Assembly: GCA_002345745.1 (NCBI GenBank)
Contig: DDWQ01000011.1
Location: 21,995-85,994, forward strand
DNA length: 64,000 bases
DNA from: Candidatus Moranbacteria bacterium UBA2282
GTDB taxonomy: Bacteria; Patescibacteriota; Minisyncoccia; Moranbacterales; UBA2206
Direction: 5' to 3'
A program made the translations under genes and the position numbers. Under the pieces are notes generated by a model that saw nothing but the letters and a program-made list of their open reading frames with translations, was not told the DNA's origin and did no database searches. Each line of letters starts with the position of its first letter. The stretch's first letter is position 1. Shown piece by piece: positions 2,184 through 13,104 of this stretch.

Positions 2184-4838
2184 ATGGAACTTTTTAATAA
2201 ACTTTTTGGCTCAAACCAGCGTGAGATTGCAAAGTTGCAACCAATTGTCGAAAAAATAAATTCCTATGACGCGACAATGCGTCGTTTGTCTGACAGTGAA
2301 TTGCAAGCAAAAACACCAGAATTTCGGGAAAGAATTGCCAAAGGCGAAACTCTAGATGAGATTTTGCCAGAGGCATACGCGGTAGTGCGAGAGGCGGCTG
2401 ATCGAGTCAACGGGACTCGGCCTTTCGATGTGCAGTTGATTGGTGGCATTGTTTTGCATCAAGGTAAAATTGCGGAAATGAAAACAGGTGAAGGAAAAAC
2501 TTTGACTTCAACTTTGCCAATTTATTTGAATGCACTAACTGGCAAAGGTGTGCATGTTATTACAGTTAATGATTATTTGGCCAAACGTGATTGCAACTGG
2601 ATGGGATCAATTTTCTATTTTCTAGGAGTTTCAGCCGCTTGCATTATTCATGATGCGTCGTATATGTATAAAGCGAAAGTTGTTGATACTAATGAAGTGA
2701 ATGTTGGAAACCTGCCTGCTGGCAGGCAGGTGGAAAATTTGCAAGAAGTGATGCGTCGTGATGCCTACAATGCTGACATTGCTTATGGAACTAATAATGA
2801 ATTTGGTTTTGATTATCTGCGGGATAATATGGTGCAAGCAAGTTCTCAGATGGTGCAACGAAAACTCAATTTTGCCATTGTTGATGAAGTCGATTCAATT
2901 TTGATTGATGAGGCGCGAACTCCACTCATTATTTCGGCACCCGATACTGAATCAACTAAATTGTATCAGCAGTTTGCACAAATTGTGCCAAAACTAAAAA
3001 AAAAGGAGGATTATGAAGTCGATGAAAAAGCAAAGGCCGTGGTCATCACTGATTCTGGAATTTCTAAAGTGGAACAAATGTTGGGTGTTAGTAATCTATA
3101 TGAAACGGGCAAGATAAATTTTGTGCATCATCTAGAGCAAGCTTTGAAAGCACAGGTTATTTTTCAACGAGACAGCGATTATGTGGTAAAGGACGGTGAA
3201 GTTATTATCGTAGATGATTTTACTGGTCGTATGATGCAAGGTCGCAGATATAGTGACGGTTTGCATCAGGCTATTGAAGCCAAAGAAAATGTCAAAGTGC
3301 AAAAGGAATCACGCACATTAGCAACGATCACTTTTCAAAATTATTTTCGAGTTTATAAAAAACTAGCTGGGATGACTGGAACAGCTTTAACGAGTGCAGA
3401 GGAATTTTTTAAGGTGTATAATGTTGATGTTCTAGAAATTCCGACTAATCGCATTATGCAAAGAAAAGATTTGCCGGATGTAATTTATAAAACAGAAAAA
3501 GGCAAATTTAATGCTATCGCAGAAGAAATAAAAAGAGTTTATGAAATTGGACAACCAATTCTTGTGGGAACTATTGCAATTGAAAAATCAGAATATTTAA
3601 GCGCACTTTTGCAGAGGACTGGCGTGCCACACGCAGTTTTGAATGCTAAAAATCATGAAAGTGAAGCTTCTATCATTGCGGGGGCTGGGAAAAAAGGCGC
3701 CGTGACAATCGCAACTAATATGGCAGGTCGTGGAACGGATATAAAACTTGGAGAAGGTGTGAAAGAACTGGGCGGTCTTTTGATTATCGGAACGGAACGG
3801 CATGAAGCACGTCGCATTGATAATCAGTTGCGAGGGCGAGCCGGACGTCAGGGCGATCCTGGTGCTTCACAATTCTATGTCTCATTGGAAGATGAATTGA
3901 TGCGTCGCTTTGGTGGTGATAAATTGAAAGATATGATGGATCGTTTTGGCTTGCCAGAAGATCAGCCGATTCAAAATGGCATAATTTCCAAATCAATCGA
4001 AAGTGCACAATCAAAAATCGAAGGTTTCAACTTTGATATTCGAAAACACGTGCTGGATTATGATGATGTTATGAATAAGCAGCGTGAAGTTGTGTATAAA
4101 AAACGACGAGAAATTTTGGAGATGAAAGATGCCAAAAGTGAACTCTTGAATTATATTAACGAGGAAATTGAAAAAGTAGTTTCCTTCAATTGTGCTGGTG
4201 ATGAGTATGCTTGGGATATGAAAGAGTTGAACACTAATTTTAATGCAATTGTTTTTGCCCAAGGAGATTTGACTGGCAAATTGGAAGAAATTAAACAAGA
4301 TGGTCGTCATAGCGCGGCGGAAAAAATTAGCCAACTAGTGGAATTTTTGATGGGCATTGCCAAAGAAGTTTATAATAAAAAAGAGCAAAATGCAGGCACA
4401 GAGCAAATGAGATCCATAGAAAAAGCAGTTATTTTGCAAACGATGGATATGTCTTGGATGAATCATCTGGATGAAATTGATTATTTACGCGAGGGGATTG
4501 GTCTGCGTGGCTATGGTCAGCGTGATCCACTGATCGAATATAAGCGGGAAGCTTTTGGAATGTTTGCACAATTGATGGATAGTATTCGAGCTAATATTGT
4601 TAGTACAATTTTCAGAGTTAATGCAGTTTCGTCGCAGAAGGAAACTCCGCAAGAGAATTTGAATTTTAGCGGAGCGAATGATGAGGTGGAACAATTTGGA
4701 ACTACTAAAGCAGTTGAATCTGGCAACGATAAGGTGTCTGTTAAAAAATCACCAATTATCAATGAAGACAAGGTCGGTCGCAATGATCCTTGTCCGTGTG
4801 GATCAGGTAAAAAATATAAGAAGTGTTGTGGTAAATAA
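2184..4838 (+). CDS. secA: preprotein translocase ATPase SecA
   Basis: DEAD-like motor motifs ([26 protein letters not shown]), 884 aa, and a C-terminal zinc finger [14 protein letters not shown]. Confidence 0.97.
2711..2730. repeat. GC-rich palindromic mini-element (CCTGCCTGCTGGCAGGCAGG) in-frame inside secA
   Basis: Near-perfect 20-bp palindrome encoding LPAGRQ within the SecA nucleotide-binding region. The same element occurs at 9651-9670 and 13083-13104. Confidence 0.8.
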
Positions 4839-4861
4839 TGTAAGTTAGTGAGAAATTTAGA

Positions 4862-5341
4862 ATGAAAATATTTAATTTATCTTTTGAAAAATCAGTCGGT
4901 GCAGTTATCTTTCGTAGAAATGAAAGTGACGAAAAAGAATTCTTGCTTTTGCATTATCCTTCTGGTCACTGGGATTTTCCAAAAGGGCATATAGAAAAAG
5001 ATGAAACTGAGAAAGAAACTTTGCGACGGGAAATTATAGAGGAAACTGGAATAATTGAACTAAATATTATTGCTGGATTTAAAGATTACATCAGATATTT
5101 CTATCAAGCCAATGGTGATGAGCGAGAAGAAAGAATTAAAAATGGAAATGGCCTGAATGTTTTTAAAAAAGTTGTGTATTATATCGCTGAAACAAAGGAA
5201 ATATCTATCATAATTTCAGATGAACATATTAATTTTGAATGGTTAAATTATGAAAAGGCGGTTGCTAGAATAACTTTTGAAAATGGCAGAAATGTTCTTA
5301 GAAAAGCCGATGTCTTTTTAGAAAAGAATTTGCATAACTAG
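4862..5341 (+). CDS. NUDIX hydrolase
   Basis: Nudix box GHIEKDETEKETLRREIIEETGI (Gx5Ex7REUxEExGU). Confidence 0.8.
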   Translation: MKIFNLSFEKSVGAVIFRRNESDEKEFLLLHYPSGHWDFPKGHIEKDETEKETLRREIIEETGIIELNIIAGFKDYIRYFYQANGDEREERIKNGNGLNVFKKVVYYIAETKEISIIISDEHINFEWLNYEKAVARITFENGRNVLRKADVFLEKNLHN

Positions 5342-5396
5342 CCCTGAACATGTTTCATTTGCACAGTTTCTTAAGATATTGTAAAATAAATTTACT

Positions 5397-7139
5397 ATGA
5401 CATTAAAACGAAAACTCTCAATACAATTTATAGCAGTCATTATCTTGGCAATAATGGTTGGATTAATTTCCTATCCGAAAGTGGTTTCAAAAATACCGCC
5501 TGTTTATAATGCATTAAATAAACTGAAAATAAATCTTGGTCTTGATTTGCAAGGAGGAATTCATCTTGAATATGCGCCTGACTTGAGTAAAATCGAAGAT
5601 GCTAAAATTGATGAGTCAATGCAAGCCGTGCAAGATGTCATCGAGCGACGCGTGAATGCCTTTGGTGTAGCTGAACCGGTTATTTATACTACGAAATCAG
5701 GCACTGACCGTAGATTGATTGTTGAGCTGGCGGGCGTGAAAGATATTAATGAAGCTAAGAGTCTAATTAAAGAAACTCCATTTTTGGAATTTAAGGAAGA
5801 AGCCGAATCCGACACATCTAATGATATTCCACAGTCTGTGCTGGATGAATTAAATGTGCAGGTCAAACAAAAAGCTGAAGAAGTTCTAAAAAAAGCTCTA
5901 GCTGGCGAAGACTTTGCGCAACTAGCGAAAGATAATAGTGAGGATCCTGGTAGTAAAGAAAATGGCGGGGATTTGGATTTTGTTAAGAAAGGAACTTTTG
6001 TACCAGAATTTGATAAAATATTATTTGAAGGAAATTTAGCTGATGGCGAAATAAATAAAGAATTGGTTGAAACTCAATTCGGGTGGCACATTATTAAGAA
6101 AATTGAAAAACGACCTGCCTCGACTGGCGGAGAATTATTGTCGACGCAAGGCGGGGGCGAAGGCGATAGTTTAGAAATTCATAGTGCGCATATTCTGTTT
6201 GCTAAAAAAGTTAATCCAGCACCAGCACGAAACTTTGTCGAAACAGGACTAACGGGTAAAAATTTAAAGAATGCCTCAGTTGATTTTAGCAATCAAGGTA
6301 TGTCCGAGACGCAAGTCGCATTAAAGTTTGATGATGAGGGAACAAAATTATTTGCTGAATTGACTAAAAAAAATATTGGGAAAAGTTTAGCAATCTATCT
6401 TGACGGACAAATTATCAGTGCACCAACTGTGCAAGCTGAAATTACGAATGGCGAAGCTGTAATCACTGGAAATTTTTCAAATGATGAAGCTAGTAATTTA
6501 GTAAAGAAACTTAATGAAGGCGCACTACCGGTGCCAATTAATTTAGTTAGTCAAGATAGTGTTGATGCCTCACTTGGCACAGCTTCACTAACCACAAGTT
6601 TGAAAGCTGGCTATATCGGACTGGGTGTAGTGATGATTTTTATGTTATTCTATTATCGTTTTCTAGGACTGATTGCTTCGGTGGCTTTGTTTATTTATAC
6701 TGGCATGATGATCGCCCTATTTAAAATATCGGGTTTGACACCTTGGCAAATAACATTGACTCTACCGGGAATTGCTGGCTTTATTTTGTCGATTGGTATG
6801 GCGGTGGATGCGAATATTCTGATTTTTGAACGAACTAAAGAAGAAATTAAAAAAGGTCGCAATATTTTAGGGGCACTTGATGAAGGTTTCAAACGAGCTT
6901 GGACCTCTATCCGTGATGGAAATGTATCTTCAATTATAACCGCATTAATTTTAATTGAACTTGGTACCGGATTTGTAAAAGGTTTTGCCGTAACTTTGAT
7001 TATTGGAGTTTTACTTTCTATGTTTACAGCCGTTACAATTTCCAGAACGATGTTGCGATTTCTGCTAGGTGAATGGATTAACGACAAATTGTGGCTAGTA
7101 GGTGTGAAAAAGAAAGATATTGCCGAAATTAAAAAATAA
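5397..7139 (+). CDS. secD: protein translocase subunit SecD with parvulin-like insertion in the periplasmic head domain
   Basis: N-terminal TM, LDLQGGIHLEY SecD signature and a C-terminal 6-TM SecD/F core. Residues ~140-270 contain PpiC/parvulin-like motifs (GGDLDF...FGWHIIKK, HSAHILFAK). Confidence 0.9.
   Translation: MTLKRKLSIQFIAVIILAIMVGLISYPKVVSKIPPVYNALNKLKINLGLDLQGGIHLEYAPDLSKIEDAKIDESMQAVQDVIERRVNAFGVAEPVIYTTKSGTDRRLIVELAGVKDINEAKSLIKETPFLEFKEEAESDTSNDIPQSVLDELNVQVKQKAEEVLKKALAGEDFAQLAKDNSEDPGSKENGGDLDFVKKGTFVPEFDKILFEGNLADGEINKELVETQFGWHIIKKIEKRPASTGGELLSTQGGGEGDSLEIHSAHILFAKKVNPAPARNFVETGLTGKNLKNASVDFSNQGMSETQVALKFDDEGTKLFAELTKKNIGKSLAIYLDGQIISAPTVQAEITNGEAVITGNFSNDEASNLVKKLNEGALPVPINLVSQDSVDASLGTASLTTSLKAGYIGLGVVMIFMLFYYRFLGLIASVALFIYTGMMIALFKISGLTPWQITLTLPGIAGFILSIGMAVDANILIFERTKEEIKKGRNILGALDEGFKRAWTSIRDGNVSSIITALILIELGTGFVKGFAVTLIIGVLLSMFTAVTISRTMLRFLLGEWINDKLWLVGVKKKDIAEIKK
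6114..6163. repeat. longer palindromic element related to the CCTGCCT family, in-frame inside secD
   Basis: CCTGCCTCGACTGGCGGAGA...TTGTCGACGCAAGGCGGGGGCGAAGG, about 80% similar to the intergenic copy at 9782-9823. Termini CCTGCCTCG / CGAGGCAGG-like. Encodes RPASTGGELLSTQGGGEG. Confidence 0.6.
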
Positions 7140-7150
7140 AATGACAAAAA

Positions 7151-8050
7151 ATGTTTAATATTATTTCTAAAACTAAATATGCCTACATCTTTTCAATAAC
7201 TTTGACAGTTTTGAGTGTGATTAGTTTGTCTTTGTGGGGATTAAAAACCGGCATTGATTTTTCCGGTGGAACTGAAATGGAGATTGGATTTGTTGATAGT
7301 GTTCCAGCTAATCAAGAAATTGTTGCAGTACTTGAACCATTGAATTTAAGCAGTTTGACGGTGCAAAGAAAAGGAACAACTTCTTTATTGATGAGCTATG
7401 CTTCAGTAGAAGATAGCGTTAATCAAAATGTTTGGAAAAGTATTACGGAAAAATATCCCGAAGCAACACAACTTAAGGCTGATTATCGCGATTCATCCGT
7501 TTCTTCAGAGCTAAAAAATAAATCTTTGTGGGCACTTTTTTGGGCAGCAATTGGAATTATGTCCTTTATTGCTTGGGCTTTTCGTAAGGTTTCCCGACCG
7601 ATTGAATCTTGGAAATATGGAGTTGGAGCCGTTATAGCACTCATTCATGATGTGTTAGTCACTGTTGGTGTGTTTTCAATTCTAGGGCATTTTCAAGGAG
7701 TTGAAGTTGGTGTTCCATTTATCGCCGCGCTTCTGACAATTCTCGGATTTTCAGTGCATGATACAATTGTTGTTTATGACCGAACTCGTGAAAATCTTTT
7801 AAAAGGTTCGTCTAAAGAACCTTTTCCAGAGGTTGTTAATCGCAGTTTAAATGAAACTCTTGTGCGTTCAATCAACACATCCCTCACAGTTATTATAACC
7901 CTGTTATCATTGTATATTTTTGGAGGGGAATCAATTAAAAACTTTGCATTAGCACTTTTGATCGGTGTAGGTTTTGGGACATATTCTTCTATTTTCATTG
8001 CCTCAGCGCTGCTTGTGACGAGTTATGAAATGCAACTAAAAAAGAAATAA
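7151..8050 (+). CDS. secF: protein translocase subunit SecF
   Basis: 6-TM SecF topology and conserved DFxGG motif (GIDFSGGTEMEI). Adjacent to secD. Confidence 0.9.
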   Translation: MFNIISKTKYAYIFSITLTVLSVISLSLWGLKTGIDFSGGTEMEIGFVDSVPANQEIVAVLEPLNLSSLTVQRKGTTSLLMSYASVEDSVNQNVWKSITEKYPEATQLKADYRDSSVSSELKNKSLWALFWAAIGIMSFIAWAFRKVSRPIESWKYGVGAVIALIHDVLVTVGVFSILGHFQGVEVGVPFIAALLTILGFSVHDTIVVYDRTRENLLKGSSKEPFPEVVNRSLNETLVRSINTSLTVIITLLSLYIFGGESIKNFALALLIGVGFGTYSSIFIASALLVTSYEMQLKKK

Positions 8051-8085
8051 ATAATTCTACCAACTACTAACTATAAACTAAAATT

Positions 8086-8334
8086 ATGTGGAATCCATTT
8101 GCAAAAAATTCAACAACTAATGATGACGTAAAAGTTCCAAAGATGGGGATGATGCAAGCGATGGCAATGAAAAGAATTGCCAAAATGAGTCCTAAAGAAA
8201 GAAACAAAATTATGCAGGACGCAATGAAACCGGAAAATCGTAATAAAATTATAGGGGCTATGGATGCTATGAAAGCTTCTGGTCAAGTATCTGAAGAACA
8301 AATTGCTAAAGCGAAAAAAATGTTGGGGATGTAG
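8086..8334 (+). CDS. hypothetical Met/Lys-rich small protein
   Basis: Clean 82-aa ORF between secF and mscL. No recognisable domain. Confidence 0.4.
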
Positions 8335-8369
8335 CGCCTCAACTTTTTTATAAAACTAACAATAATCGT

Positions 8370-8768
8370 ATGTTTAAAGAATTTAAAAAATTTGCTGTCA
8401 AAGGAAATGCAGTTGATATGGCAGTTGGTATTATTATCGGTGCGGCTTTCGGTAAGATTGTAACGTCATTGGTAACTGACGTTATTATGCCACCAATCGG
8501 AGTTCTGCTAGGTGGGATTGATTTTTCTAACTTAGTTATAACATTGAAAAAAGCCACAGACACTACGGCGGCCGTAACACTAAATTATGGAATTTTCATA
8601 AATACAATTCTTGATTTTGTTTTAATCTCCTTCGCCATATTTATCATTATTAAACAAATCAATCGCTTGAAGAAAAAGGAAGAAAATAAGCCGGTAACTA
8701 AACCCACTGAAGATATTCTGCTACTGCGAGAAATCAGAGATGCACTCAAAAGTGGCACAAAAAAATAA
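8370..8768 (+). CDS. mscL: large-conductance mechanosensitive channel MscL
   Basis: [31 protein letters not shown] matches the canonical MscL N-terminus and TM1. Confidence 0.92.
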
Positions 8769-8859: not shown

Positions 8860-9441
8860 ATGAAATATCATAAAGACATATTTGAAATAATTTTCCATGC
8901 GCGGGGTGGACAGGGGGCTAAGACAGCCGCTGAAATCATTGCGCAGGCAGCGGTGAATGAGGGCAAATTTGTGCAGGCTTTTCCGCAATTCGGACCTGAA
9001 CGCAGTGGGGCGCCAACCAAGACGTTTGTGCGTATTTCTGATCATGAGATTAGAACTCATGAGCCGATTACTGACCCGGATGTCGTGGTTGTTTTGGACG
9101 AGACTATTCTTGATTCTGAGATTGTCACCACTAACCTCGACAAAAATGAAGCTTTGGTTGTGGCTACTAAAAAAACAGCATTGGAAATTAGTCAAAAGCT
9201 TTCTGTGCGTGCTAGATTTGAAGGCAAGATCTATCCGATTGATGCCAACGGAATCTCGATGGAAATCGTGGGACAGCCGAGACCAAACACGGTGATTCTG
9301 GGAAAATTTGTGCAAGTAACGGAAATTGTCAGTTTGGAAAGTGTAATTTCCGAATTTAAAAAAATATTTGGAACAAAAATTGGCAAAGAAGCCACAGATA
9401 AAAATATTTTAGCGATTGAAAAAGCATATGACACAATATAA
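8860..9441 (+). CDS. porC: pyruvate/2-oxoacid:ferredoxin oxidoreductase gamma subunit
   Basis: FHARGGQGAKTAAEIIAQAA...FPQFGPERSGAP. The start was moved to the internal Met at 8860. A TGgTATACTATAAT -10-like box lies just upstream. Confidence 0.85.
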   Translation: MKYHKDIFEIIFHARGGQGAKTAAEIIAQAAVNEGKFVQAFPQFGPERSGAPTKTFVRISDHEIRTHEPITDPDVVVVLDETILDSEIVTTNLDKNEALVVATKKTALEISQKLSVRARFEGKIYPIDANGISMEIVGQPRPNTVILGKFVQVTEIVSLESVISEFKKIFGTKIGKEATDKNILAIEKAYDTI

Positions 9442-9763
9442 TAAATCGGAAATTGAGAATAAAAAGTCTAAAATTGGCAGTGAAGAAGGTGCCGTTATTA
9501 AACACGATTTGAAAAATGCAGCTGCGACTGGTGATTGGCGATATATGACACCAATTGTAGATAAAGAAAAATGCACTGGTTGCACAACTTGCATGCCATT
9601 TTGCCCGGAAGCGTCAATCATAATGAAGGCATATAAAAGTGAGTCAACGGCCTGCCTGCCGGCAGGCAGGGACAAGTGTGATATTGACTATGATTTTTGC
9701 AAAGGTTGCGGAGTATGTGCAGCTGTTTGCCCAGCCAAAGCGATTACAATGAAGAAAAATTAA
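9416..9763 (+). CDS. porD: pyruvate:ferredoxin oxidoreductase delta subunit (2x[4Fe-4S] ferredoxin)
   Basis: Two CxxCxxCxxxCP motifs: CTGCTTCMPFCP and CKGCGVCAAVCP. Confidence 0.85.
   Translation: MKKHMTQYNKSEIENKKSKIGSEEGAVIKHDLKNAAATGDWRYMTPIVDKEKCTGCTTCMPFCPEASIIMKAYKSESTACLPAGRDKCDIDYDFCKGCGVCAAVCPAKAITMKKN
9651..9670. repeat. perfect 20-bp palindrome CCTGCCTGCCGGCAGGCAGG in-frame inside porD
   Basis: Encodes CLPAGRD between the two Fe-S motifs. Identical to the core of the element at 13083-13104. Confidence 0.85.
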
Positions 9764-9781: not shown

Positions 9782-9823
9782 CCCGCCTCGACTCGCGGAG
9801 ACCTCTTGTCGAAGCGAGGCAGG
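9782..9823. repeat. palindromic element (CCCGCCTCGACTCGCGGAGA...GTCGAAGCGAGGCAGG) in the porD-porA spacer
   Basis: Terminal inverted repeat CCYGCCTCG / CGAGGCAGG. Related to the secD-internal copy at 6114-6163. Confidence 0.6.
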
Positions 9824-13082: not shown

Positions 13083-13104
13083 CCCTGCCTGCCGGCAGGC
13101 AGGG
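13083..13104. repeat. perfect 22-bp palindrome CCCTGCCTGCCGGCAGGCAGGG (intergenic copy)
   Basis: Direct reading. Lies 50 bp right of the 73-bp repeat copy 1. Confidence 0.85.

Follow-up and report, generated by a model that had tools for sequence, protein, structure and literature searches.

Known SecD and parvulin systems

How exported proteins are handed over from the Sec channel to folding helpers is still debated. Here we describe a secD gene, at 5397..7139 on the + strand of a 64,000-nucleotide stretch of DNA (the window) from Candidatus Moranbacteria bacterium UBA2282 (contig DDWQ01000011.1, positions 21,995 to 85,994), whose product contains a parvulin-type peptidyl-prolyl isomerase (PPIase) domain that is probably circularly permuted. 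In the described SecDF systems, the proton-motive force swings the P1 head by ~100 degrees between the F and I forms, and a hydrophobic pocket of the head is thought to hold the emerging chain (PMC8669966). Parvulin-containing chaperones such as SurA and PpiD/YfgM likewise meet exported chains at the exit of the translocon. PpiD/YfgM sit at SecY (PMC8669966). SurA binds the SecYEG-SecDF-YidC holo-translocon, and in all AlphaFold models of this assembly both of its parvulin domains touch the P1 head of SecD; the link between E. coli SecDF and parvulin chaperones rests on low-resolution electron microscopy and AlphaFold models (PMC9987972). These associations are non-covalent and transient and involve parvulins of canonical strand order, whereas the fusion in SecD would be a covalent 'Rosetta stone' version of the same partnership.

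A further parallel is found in the wall-less, reduced-genome bacterium Mycoplasma pneumoniae, where the parvulin PPIases Mpn444 and Mpn436 of the cell surface cross-link to SecD (bioRxiv 10.1101/2024.09.05.611430). Both differ from the protein described here in being proteins of their own: each is a large lipoprotein that has a propeller as well as a chaperone-like domain, and neither is fused to SecD or reported as permuted. The PrsA proteins of Firmicutes (PDB 6VJ6, 4WO7 and 1ZK6) share GGDL, FGYHII and HIL motifs with the SecD insert, and they too place a parvulin at the outer membrane face of monoderm cells, where it acts on Sec-exported proteins. However, PrsA is a separate dimeric lipoprotein in which a parvulin of canonical strand order is nested in an N/C chaperone domain; the SecD insert has no such chaperone domain, is probably permuted, and has SecD as its host. 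On the SecD side, the SecDF proteins of Thermus thermophilus and Deinococcus radiodurans (3AQP, 5YHF and 5XAN) have homologous P1 base, P1 head and transmembrane domains and the membrane Asp in common with our SecD, but they have ~34 mostly helical residues where it has a 143-residue parvulin plus beta1, and they are D-F fusions, in contrast to the separate adjacent genes for the two subunits in the window.

In the literature searched, we came across neither a SecD-parvulin fusion nor a permuted parvulin, and the insert thus appears to be a natural circular permutant of the parvulin fold that has not been described before. The co-occurrence of SecD and rotamase domains was already visible in precomputed Pfam domain lists. 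SecD and parvulins are both known kinds of protein; the permuted fusion is a new variant of both, and it offers a simple single-polypeptide system in which the partnership of SecD and parvulins could be studied.

A parvulin domain at the junction of P1 base and P1 head

The 580-amino-acid open reading frame (ORF) at 5397..7139 encodes SecD. It matches TIGR01129 with 378.2 bits against a cut-off of 244.4 (residues 47-553, model positions 1-397) and is homologous to T. thermophilus SecDF 3AQP (E 1.8e-71). Four Pfam modules follow one another collinearly along the protein: SecD_1st at residues 75-136, Rotamase at 153-238, SecDF_P1_head at 283-379 and SecD_SecF_C at 381-556. The first of these is the N-terminal module of the P1 base (5619..5804, +; E 2e-16), the third is the P1 head subdomain (6243..6533, +; E 7.8e-32, profile positions 19-114), and the last is the transmembrane domain (6537..7064, +). 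The six-helix membrane domain expected of a SecD was found, with long helices predicted by AlphaFold2 (AF2) over residues 395-579. Within it, D471 in the sequence GMAVD471ANIL aligns with the Asp of GAAVDGNVL in T. thermophilus and is invariant in the homolog alignment. It is presumably the equivalent of E. coli SecD D519, the conserved membrane Asp of the proton pathway (PMC8669966).

The initial annotation, made from the sequence alone, had proposed a parvulin-like segment at 5814-6210, which corresponds to residues 140-271 of the ORF; the strings GGDLDFVKKGTFVPEFD, TQFGWHIIKK and LEIHSAHILFAKK on which it drew are all present, in that order. The Pfam scan bore out the proposal. Rotamase_3 (PF13616) matches residues 155-238 with E 1.8e-23 and 83.7 bits (cut-off 22.5), and Rotamase (PF00639) matches residues 153-236 with E 4.7e-21 and 76 bits (cut-off 21.7), covering profile positions 15-96 of 97. 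These scores are far above the gathering thresholds, which excludes a chance resemblance. The parvulin core comprises residues 146-240 (5832..6116, +), with secondary structure elements in the order alpha1-alpha2-alpha3-beta2-alpha4-beta3/beta4 and with the motifs GGD192L, FVPEF and FGWH231II. Its nearest solved relatives in a sequence search are the parvulin structures of PrsA, SurA and PpiC; PrsA is the closest (54.6 bits, E 1.1e-13), and NCBIfam PrsA models also match. The core is followed by a loop of low predicted confidence (residues 241-258; 6117..6170, +), identified in the homolog alignment, which joins what would be the C- and N-termini of a canonical parvulin, and then by the apparently relocated strand beta1, LEIHSAH265ILFA (residues 259-269; 6171..6203, +), which carries the first His of the dual-His motif. 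The full active-site set is thus present: H265 and H231 (the dual His), D192 (the Asp after GG), and F201, V202, P203 and F205 (the hydrophobic proline pocket). We take H59 and H157 of Pin1 to be the counterparts of the dual His, and its C113 to be that of the Asp or Cys after GG. By sequence and predicted fold the module is a parvulin-type PPIase domain, and it is the only parvulin encoded in the 64-kb window.

That SecD carries an insert was correct in the initial annotation; its placement inside the head domain calls for a refinement. Residues ~140-284 stand in place of roughly residues 126-159 of T. thermophilus SecDF, a segment of ~34 residues at the N-terminus of the head. On one side, the last P1-base strand FLEFKEEA (residues 129-136, assigned as strand by AF2) runs into the insert, and on the other the alignment pairs the P1 head with T. 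thermophilus SecDF starting at residue 160. The insert therefore appears, from these alignments, to lie at the junction of P1 base and head and not within the head fold. It also accounts, as had been proposed, for the length of 580 amino acids, as the insert-free SecD cluster representatives have ~430-470.

Probable circular permutation of the parvulin

The order of the parvulin motifs in SecD is reversed relative to canonical parvulins, as noted in the initial annotation. The consensus of 91 canonical domains reads ...ASHILI...GGDLGWF...FGYHII, with beta1 first, while in SecD the SAHILF strand stands after FGWHII. Consistent with this, the collinear PF00639 match starts at profile position 15, so that the first strand is missing from it. 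When residues 254-272 were moved ahead of the core, the match extended over positions 1-96 of 97 in PF00639 and 16-115 of 116 in PF13616, and the scores rose from 79.2 bits for the core alone to 83.0 (PF00639) and from 88.2 to 91.6 (PF13616). With a hidden Markov model (HMM) built from the 91 canonical domains, the core scored 100.1 bits and the re-ordered sequence 107.0 (+6.9), whereas the native order gave no gain (99.7). None of 300 shuffled tails reached 107.0 (mean 100.2, standard deviation 1.0, maximum 106.5), and neither did any of 133 other 23-mers of SecD, which peaked at 104.3.

Structure prediction gave the same order of elements. In an AF2 model of the full SecD, computed from a 47-sequence alignment (mean predicted local distance difference test, pLDDT, 83.8), the insert is composed of helices 146-168, 173-180, 184-189 and 203-211 and strands 192-197 and 229-240, then strand 259-269; this is the parvulin order with beta1 shifted to the end. 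The parvulin core has pLDDT 87-98, and loop residues 245-254 are disordered (pLDDT <50). When residues 139-276 were predicted alone, they formed a compact domain (pLDDT 89.3, predicted template modelling score, pTM, 0.81) in which 259-269 was still assigned as a strand with pLDDT ~97. The pairing partners of beta1 would thus lie inside the insert and not in the P1 head or base. A Foldseek comparison of this insert model with the SurA parvulin 2PV1 gave an rmsd of 1.6 A over 82 columns (TMt 0.69), and TMt was 0.63 for E. coli Par10 (1JNS). The insert is therefore predicted to have the three-dimensional fold of a parvulin, as an autonomous domain and not as a part of the normal P1 head fold. Foldseek searches with the whole SecD model were dominated by SecDF (E 1e-23) and RND pumps and were uninformative on the insert. 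In two PDB entries, 8HM3 and 8HM4 (a Bacteroides fragilis PPIase of 427 residues), the Foldseek alignment extended over 130-132 of the 138 residues of the insert (E 1e-7, TMq 0.61), far more than in the matches to single parvulin domains.

The initial annotation had left two possibilities side by side, a circular permutation or two half-domains. The re-ordering, the HMM scores, the full-length AF2 model, the isolated AF2 model and the coupling of the two His residues described below are five independent tests that support a single, complete, circularly permuted parvulin. The half-domain possibility was rejected, as one core and one strand give exactly one full profile.

Conservation and coupling of active-site residues

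The conservation of the insert was analyzed in a set of 121 close homologs. No sequence varies at G190 or G191, the residue at position 192 is D or E in all but two of the 121 sequences, which have Val (119 with D or E), and His is found in 119 sequences at position 231 and likewise in 119 at position 265. The insert is under purifying selection: the frequency of the majority residue is 0.80 in the core and 0.78 in beta1, compared with 0.82 in the P1 head. The two sequences that lack H231 are the same two that lack H265 (P0046 and P0058, with GWAII and SALI[FL]F). Among 21 more distant representatives with a single insert, both His residues are kept in 13, neither in 5, and 3 are discordant or unaligned. 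In parvulins the dual His residues lie side by side on adjacent central strands; as neighbors in one active site they are expected to be kept together and lost together. It is said of Pin1 that double His substitutions are tolerated where single ones are not, and the joint replacement in P0046 and P0058 recalls this behavior.

Distribution and two-unit forms

Orthologs of SecD were surveyed for the insert, as the initial annotation had suggested. All 120 of the best homologs from a collection of 5.8 billion proteins (69-100% identity) combine PF00639 and PF13616 with the SecD families. Those that are named are called only 'SecD' and come from Moranbacteria, Parcubacteria or Patescibacteria metagenome-assembled genomes. 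With such proteins labelled only as SecD, the foldase capacity of genomes of the Candidate Phyla Radiation (CPR) will be under-counted. In a library of representatives clustered at 50% identity, 287 clusters matched the P1 region with E <= 1e-30, and the best 150 of these were classified: one or more parvulin units separate base and head in 83 of them, and 67 lack such a unit. Sampling of GTDB species genomes yielded at least 11 species loci with a parvulin in SecD context. By their titles, nine are of Patescibacteria type (Moranbacteria, Komeilibacteria, Uhrbacteria, Magasanikbacteria, Parcubacteria and 'Patescibacteria group'), one is a 'bacterium' and one a Gammaproteobacteria (L025). A profile search of a large protein database returned mainly short fragments and free SurA/PrsA proteins and contributed few further lineage names, with Falkowbacteria among the named fragments. 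In these surveys the architecture is thus the norm in Moranbacteria and widespread, though not universal, in Patescibacteria. The remark in the initial annotation that it is not standard holds for bacteria generally but not for these groups.

Two of the proteins found bear non-CPR labels, both unverified: L025 (CAYNYL010000007.1, 'uncultured Gammaproteobacteria') and P0277 ('Nitrospirota', on a 1-kb contig). The base module of L025 is 63% identical to that of Moranbacteria, which suggests mislabelling and not an occurrence outside the CPR. Five representatives have no detectable parvulin, yet carry 100-270 extra residues between P1 base and head (P0156, P0179, P0185, P0196 and P0243), and the junction of base and head thus seems to be a general insertion hotspot.

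Many representatives of 650-1100 amino acids contain two parvulin units, for example P0128, P0134, P0138-P0140 and P0144-P0147 and loci L004, L009, L012 and L075; some of these are SecD-SecF fusions of ~1000-1100 amino acids. The order in two-unit proteins is base, a degenerate core, VKASHILI, a canonical core (GGDLGWF...FGYHII), a final strand and the head. Among 31 two-unit representatives, the beta4 His is present in the first core of none and the final strand has its His in only 2, whereas in 28 the His is present in the middle strand as well as in the second core. If the His pair is taken to mark which strand goes with which core, this pattern suggests an outer unit, degenerate and permuted, whose beta4-beta1 loop contains the second unit as a nested parvulin of canonical order.

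Proposed function and alternative explanations

We consider it quite likely that this SecD contains one complete circularly permuted parvulin at the junction of P1 base and head, with a function like that of PrsA, PpiD and SurA. The chain would enter the parvulin at helix alpha1, continue to the last strand, FGWHII, and reverse through a short loop; the normally first strand, SAHILF, would then join beside the last strand, and the chain would exit to the P1 head. As the new termini fall in what is the beta1-alpha1 loop of canonical parvulins, the domain would hang off the SecD hinge by two adjacent connections. On the simplest reading, a PrsA-like foldase has been fused to the hinge in these reduced genomes, and in such a position it would be held permanently beside the substrate-binding head as this swings with the proton-motive force. 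Chains pulled by the head could then meet an isomerase or holdase at once, and the parvulin might bind unfolded chains as they leave SecYEG and catalyze or assist proline-limited folding. By analogy with these chaperones, the most likely function is that of a PrsA/PpiD-like foldase or holdase acting on the chains that SecDF pulls out. As the covalent fusion of a parvulin to the hinge is conserved in a large radiation of bacteria, it provides evidence from evolution, independent of the E. coli and Mycoplasma data, for a SecD-parvulin partnership.

Several points weigh against this reading. The Foldseek E values for single parvulin domains are weak (0.07-1.4), though the TM-scores indicate the same fold. 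We infer the docking of beta1 beside beta4 from the DSSP assignment and pLDDT of the isolated domain, from the HMM scores and from residue coupling. The pTM of the full-length AF2 model is 0.52, so that this model does not fix where the parvulin lies with respect to the head and SecYEG. With regard to catalysis, the loss of the His pair in some lineages means that catalysis is not the universal role of the insert, and several parvulin domains of Sec-associated chaperones (PpiD, SurA P1) are catalytically inactive.

Given this loss, a role as chaperone or spacer without catalysis is a serious alternative, although on balance we regard it as rather unlikely. The inserted parvulin would then be a module for substrate binding, a holdase or a spacer, comparable to the parvulin domain of PpiD or to the P1 domain of SurA, that enlarges or tunes the grip of the P1 head on the emerging chain and does not isomerize prolines. 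Such a role would be in keeping with the absence of both His residues from P0046, P0058 and five of the single-domain representatives, with the lack of a beta4 His in the outer unit of all 31 two-unit representatives, and with the Val found at position 192 in two sequences. However, the GGD/E, FVPEF, FGWHII and SAHIL motifs are intact in SecD and in 119 of the 121 relatives, and they are conserved to the same degree as the P1 head, which is what selection on the active site would produce. In the SecD of the window the intact motifs favor catalytic competence.

It is very improbable that the insert is instead a truncated parvulin without beta1, in which LEIHSAHILF belongs to the sheet of the P1 head or base and the two pieces are unrelated. 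The Pfam match in native order does stop before the first strand, and the P1-head match begins only at profile position 19, which leaves room for an unassigned head strand. Against this, the strand scores as parvulin beta1 above every control, is confidently paired when the insert is modelled alone, and has no counterpart at this position in T. thermophilus SecDF, and its H265 is kept or lost with the core His from homolog to homolog. An error of assembly or gene calling, or a recent accident without function that is confined to one genome, might be suspected in a metagenome-type source genome with a mobile-looking element in the linker, but was rejected with near certainty because the same uninterrupted ORF architecture recurs, strongly conserved, in >120 independent clusters (NCBI, JGI, ENA and Logan assemblies) and in lineages diverged down to 26-40% identity.

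Beyond the permuted parvulin itself, we tentatively put forward a broader scheme, which we think somewhat more likely to fail than to hold. In this scheme the fused foldase replaces free PrsA, PpiD or SurA in Patescibacteria, and the proton-driven swing of the head brings emerging segments to the isomerase. The fusion would then be a 'Rosetta stone' for a partnership of P1 head and parvulin in all bacteria, and the beta4-beta1 loop might serve as a landing pad for the nested parvulin and for at least two families of mini-elements.

The beta4-beta1 loop and its palindromic mini-elements

In 94 of the 121 homologs the beta4-beta1 linker is ~5 residues long (e.g., GEGDG), which is sufficient for a beta4-beta1 hairpin. 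In the SecD of the window it is lengthened by a GC-rich palindromic mini-element of 42 nt (14 codons) inserted in frame at 6114..6155 (+), with the sequence CCTGCCTCGACTGGCGGAGAATTATTGTCGACGCAAGGCGGG encoding PASTGGELLSTQGG. The initial annotation had rightly placed such an element inside the insert but had extended it to 6163. The element was recognized through comparison with other genomes. Its terminal inverted repeats are imperfect (CCTGCCTCG / CAAGGCGGG), and a search for inverted repeats in 6050-6250 reported nothing, which is attributable to the degenerate arms of this copy. A second copy, also of 42 nt, is found at 9782..9823 (+), just downstream of the ORF at 9416..9763. The element is missing from the closest distinct homolog, P0002 (locus L083), which is 92% identical. 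Two other Moranbacteria (L081 and L082) have copies of 39 and 45 nt at this very site of SecD, one of them with perfect 9-bp terminal inverted repeats (CCCGCCTCG/CGAGGCGGG), and the consensus of the terminal repeats is CCYGCCTCG / CGAGGCRGG. Carriers are scattered on the SecD tree, with 13 parsimony steps for 16 carriers compared with 15.3 expected at random placement.

In other genomes the loop contains a second in-frame insert of 14 residues, DPVKSPDGDNGAS, which lies a few codons further downstream. The palindrome that encodes this insert is a different one, CCCCGT..ATCGCC..GGCGAT..ACGGGG (CCCCGTAAAATCGCCCGATGGCGATAACGGGG), and the insert occurs in L084 (P0100), P0018, P0035, P0040, P0048, P0049, P0070, P0083, P0085, P0095 and P0119; P0021 and P0077 carry both loop inserts. 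In three further proteins of other lineages (P0122, P0133 and P0136) the loop contains low-complexity inserts of 40-70 residues, which are Glu/Asn-rich or consist of GVEGV-type repeats, and the loop thus tolerates a wide range of insertions.

Palindromic elements of Rickettsia are short and occur either between genes or in frame within coding genes, where they add a surface loop. The mini-element is like them in these general features, as a short palindromic repeat with copies both outside and within coding sequence, but differs in being much shorter (39-45 nt), in being GC-rich in a genome of 36% GC, and in its occurrence in Patescibacteria. The window also contains three copies of a 20-nt palindrome, CCTGCCTGCCGGCAGGCAGG, at 2711-2730, 9651-9670 and 13084-13103, two of them exact and one with a single mismatch, where none is expected by chance. 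One lies within secA, where it encodes 11 residues, and one within the Cys-rich ORF at 9416..9763; at the 13084 copy, neither ARAGORN nor Rfam identified an RNA gene.

Gene neighborhood

Ahead of secD lie secA (2184..4838) and a NUDIX gene, and after it comes secF (7151..8050, +), which encodes the partner subunit, a protein of normal length (299 amino acids) that matches TIGR00966 with 270 bits against a cut-off of 160. The order secA, NUDIX gene, secD, secF and a small ORF of 79-85 amino acids is kept across Moranbacteria contigs (2184-8768 in the window; loci L081, L082 and L083), with secA falling outside the shorter L081 stretch. The next gene is mscL, both in the window and in L083.

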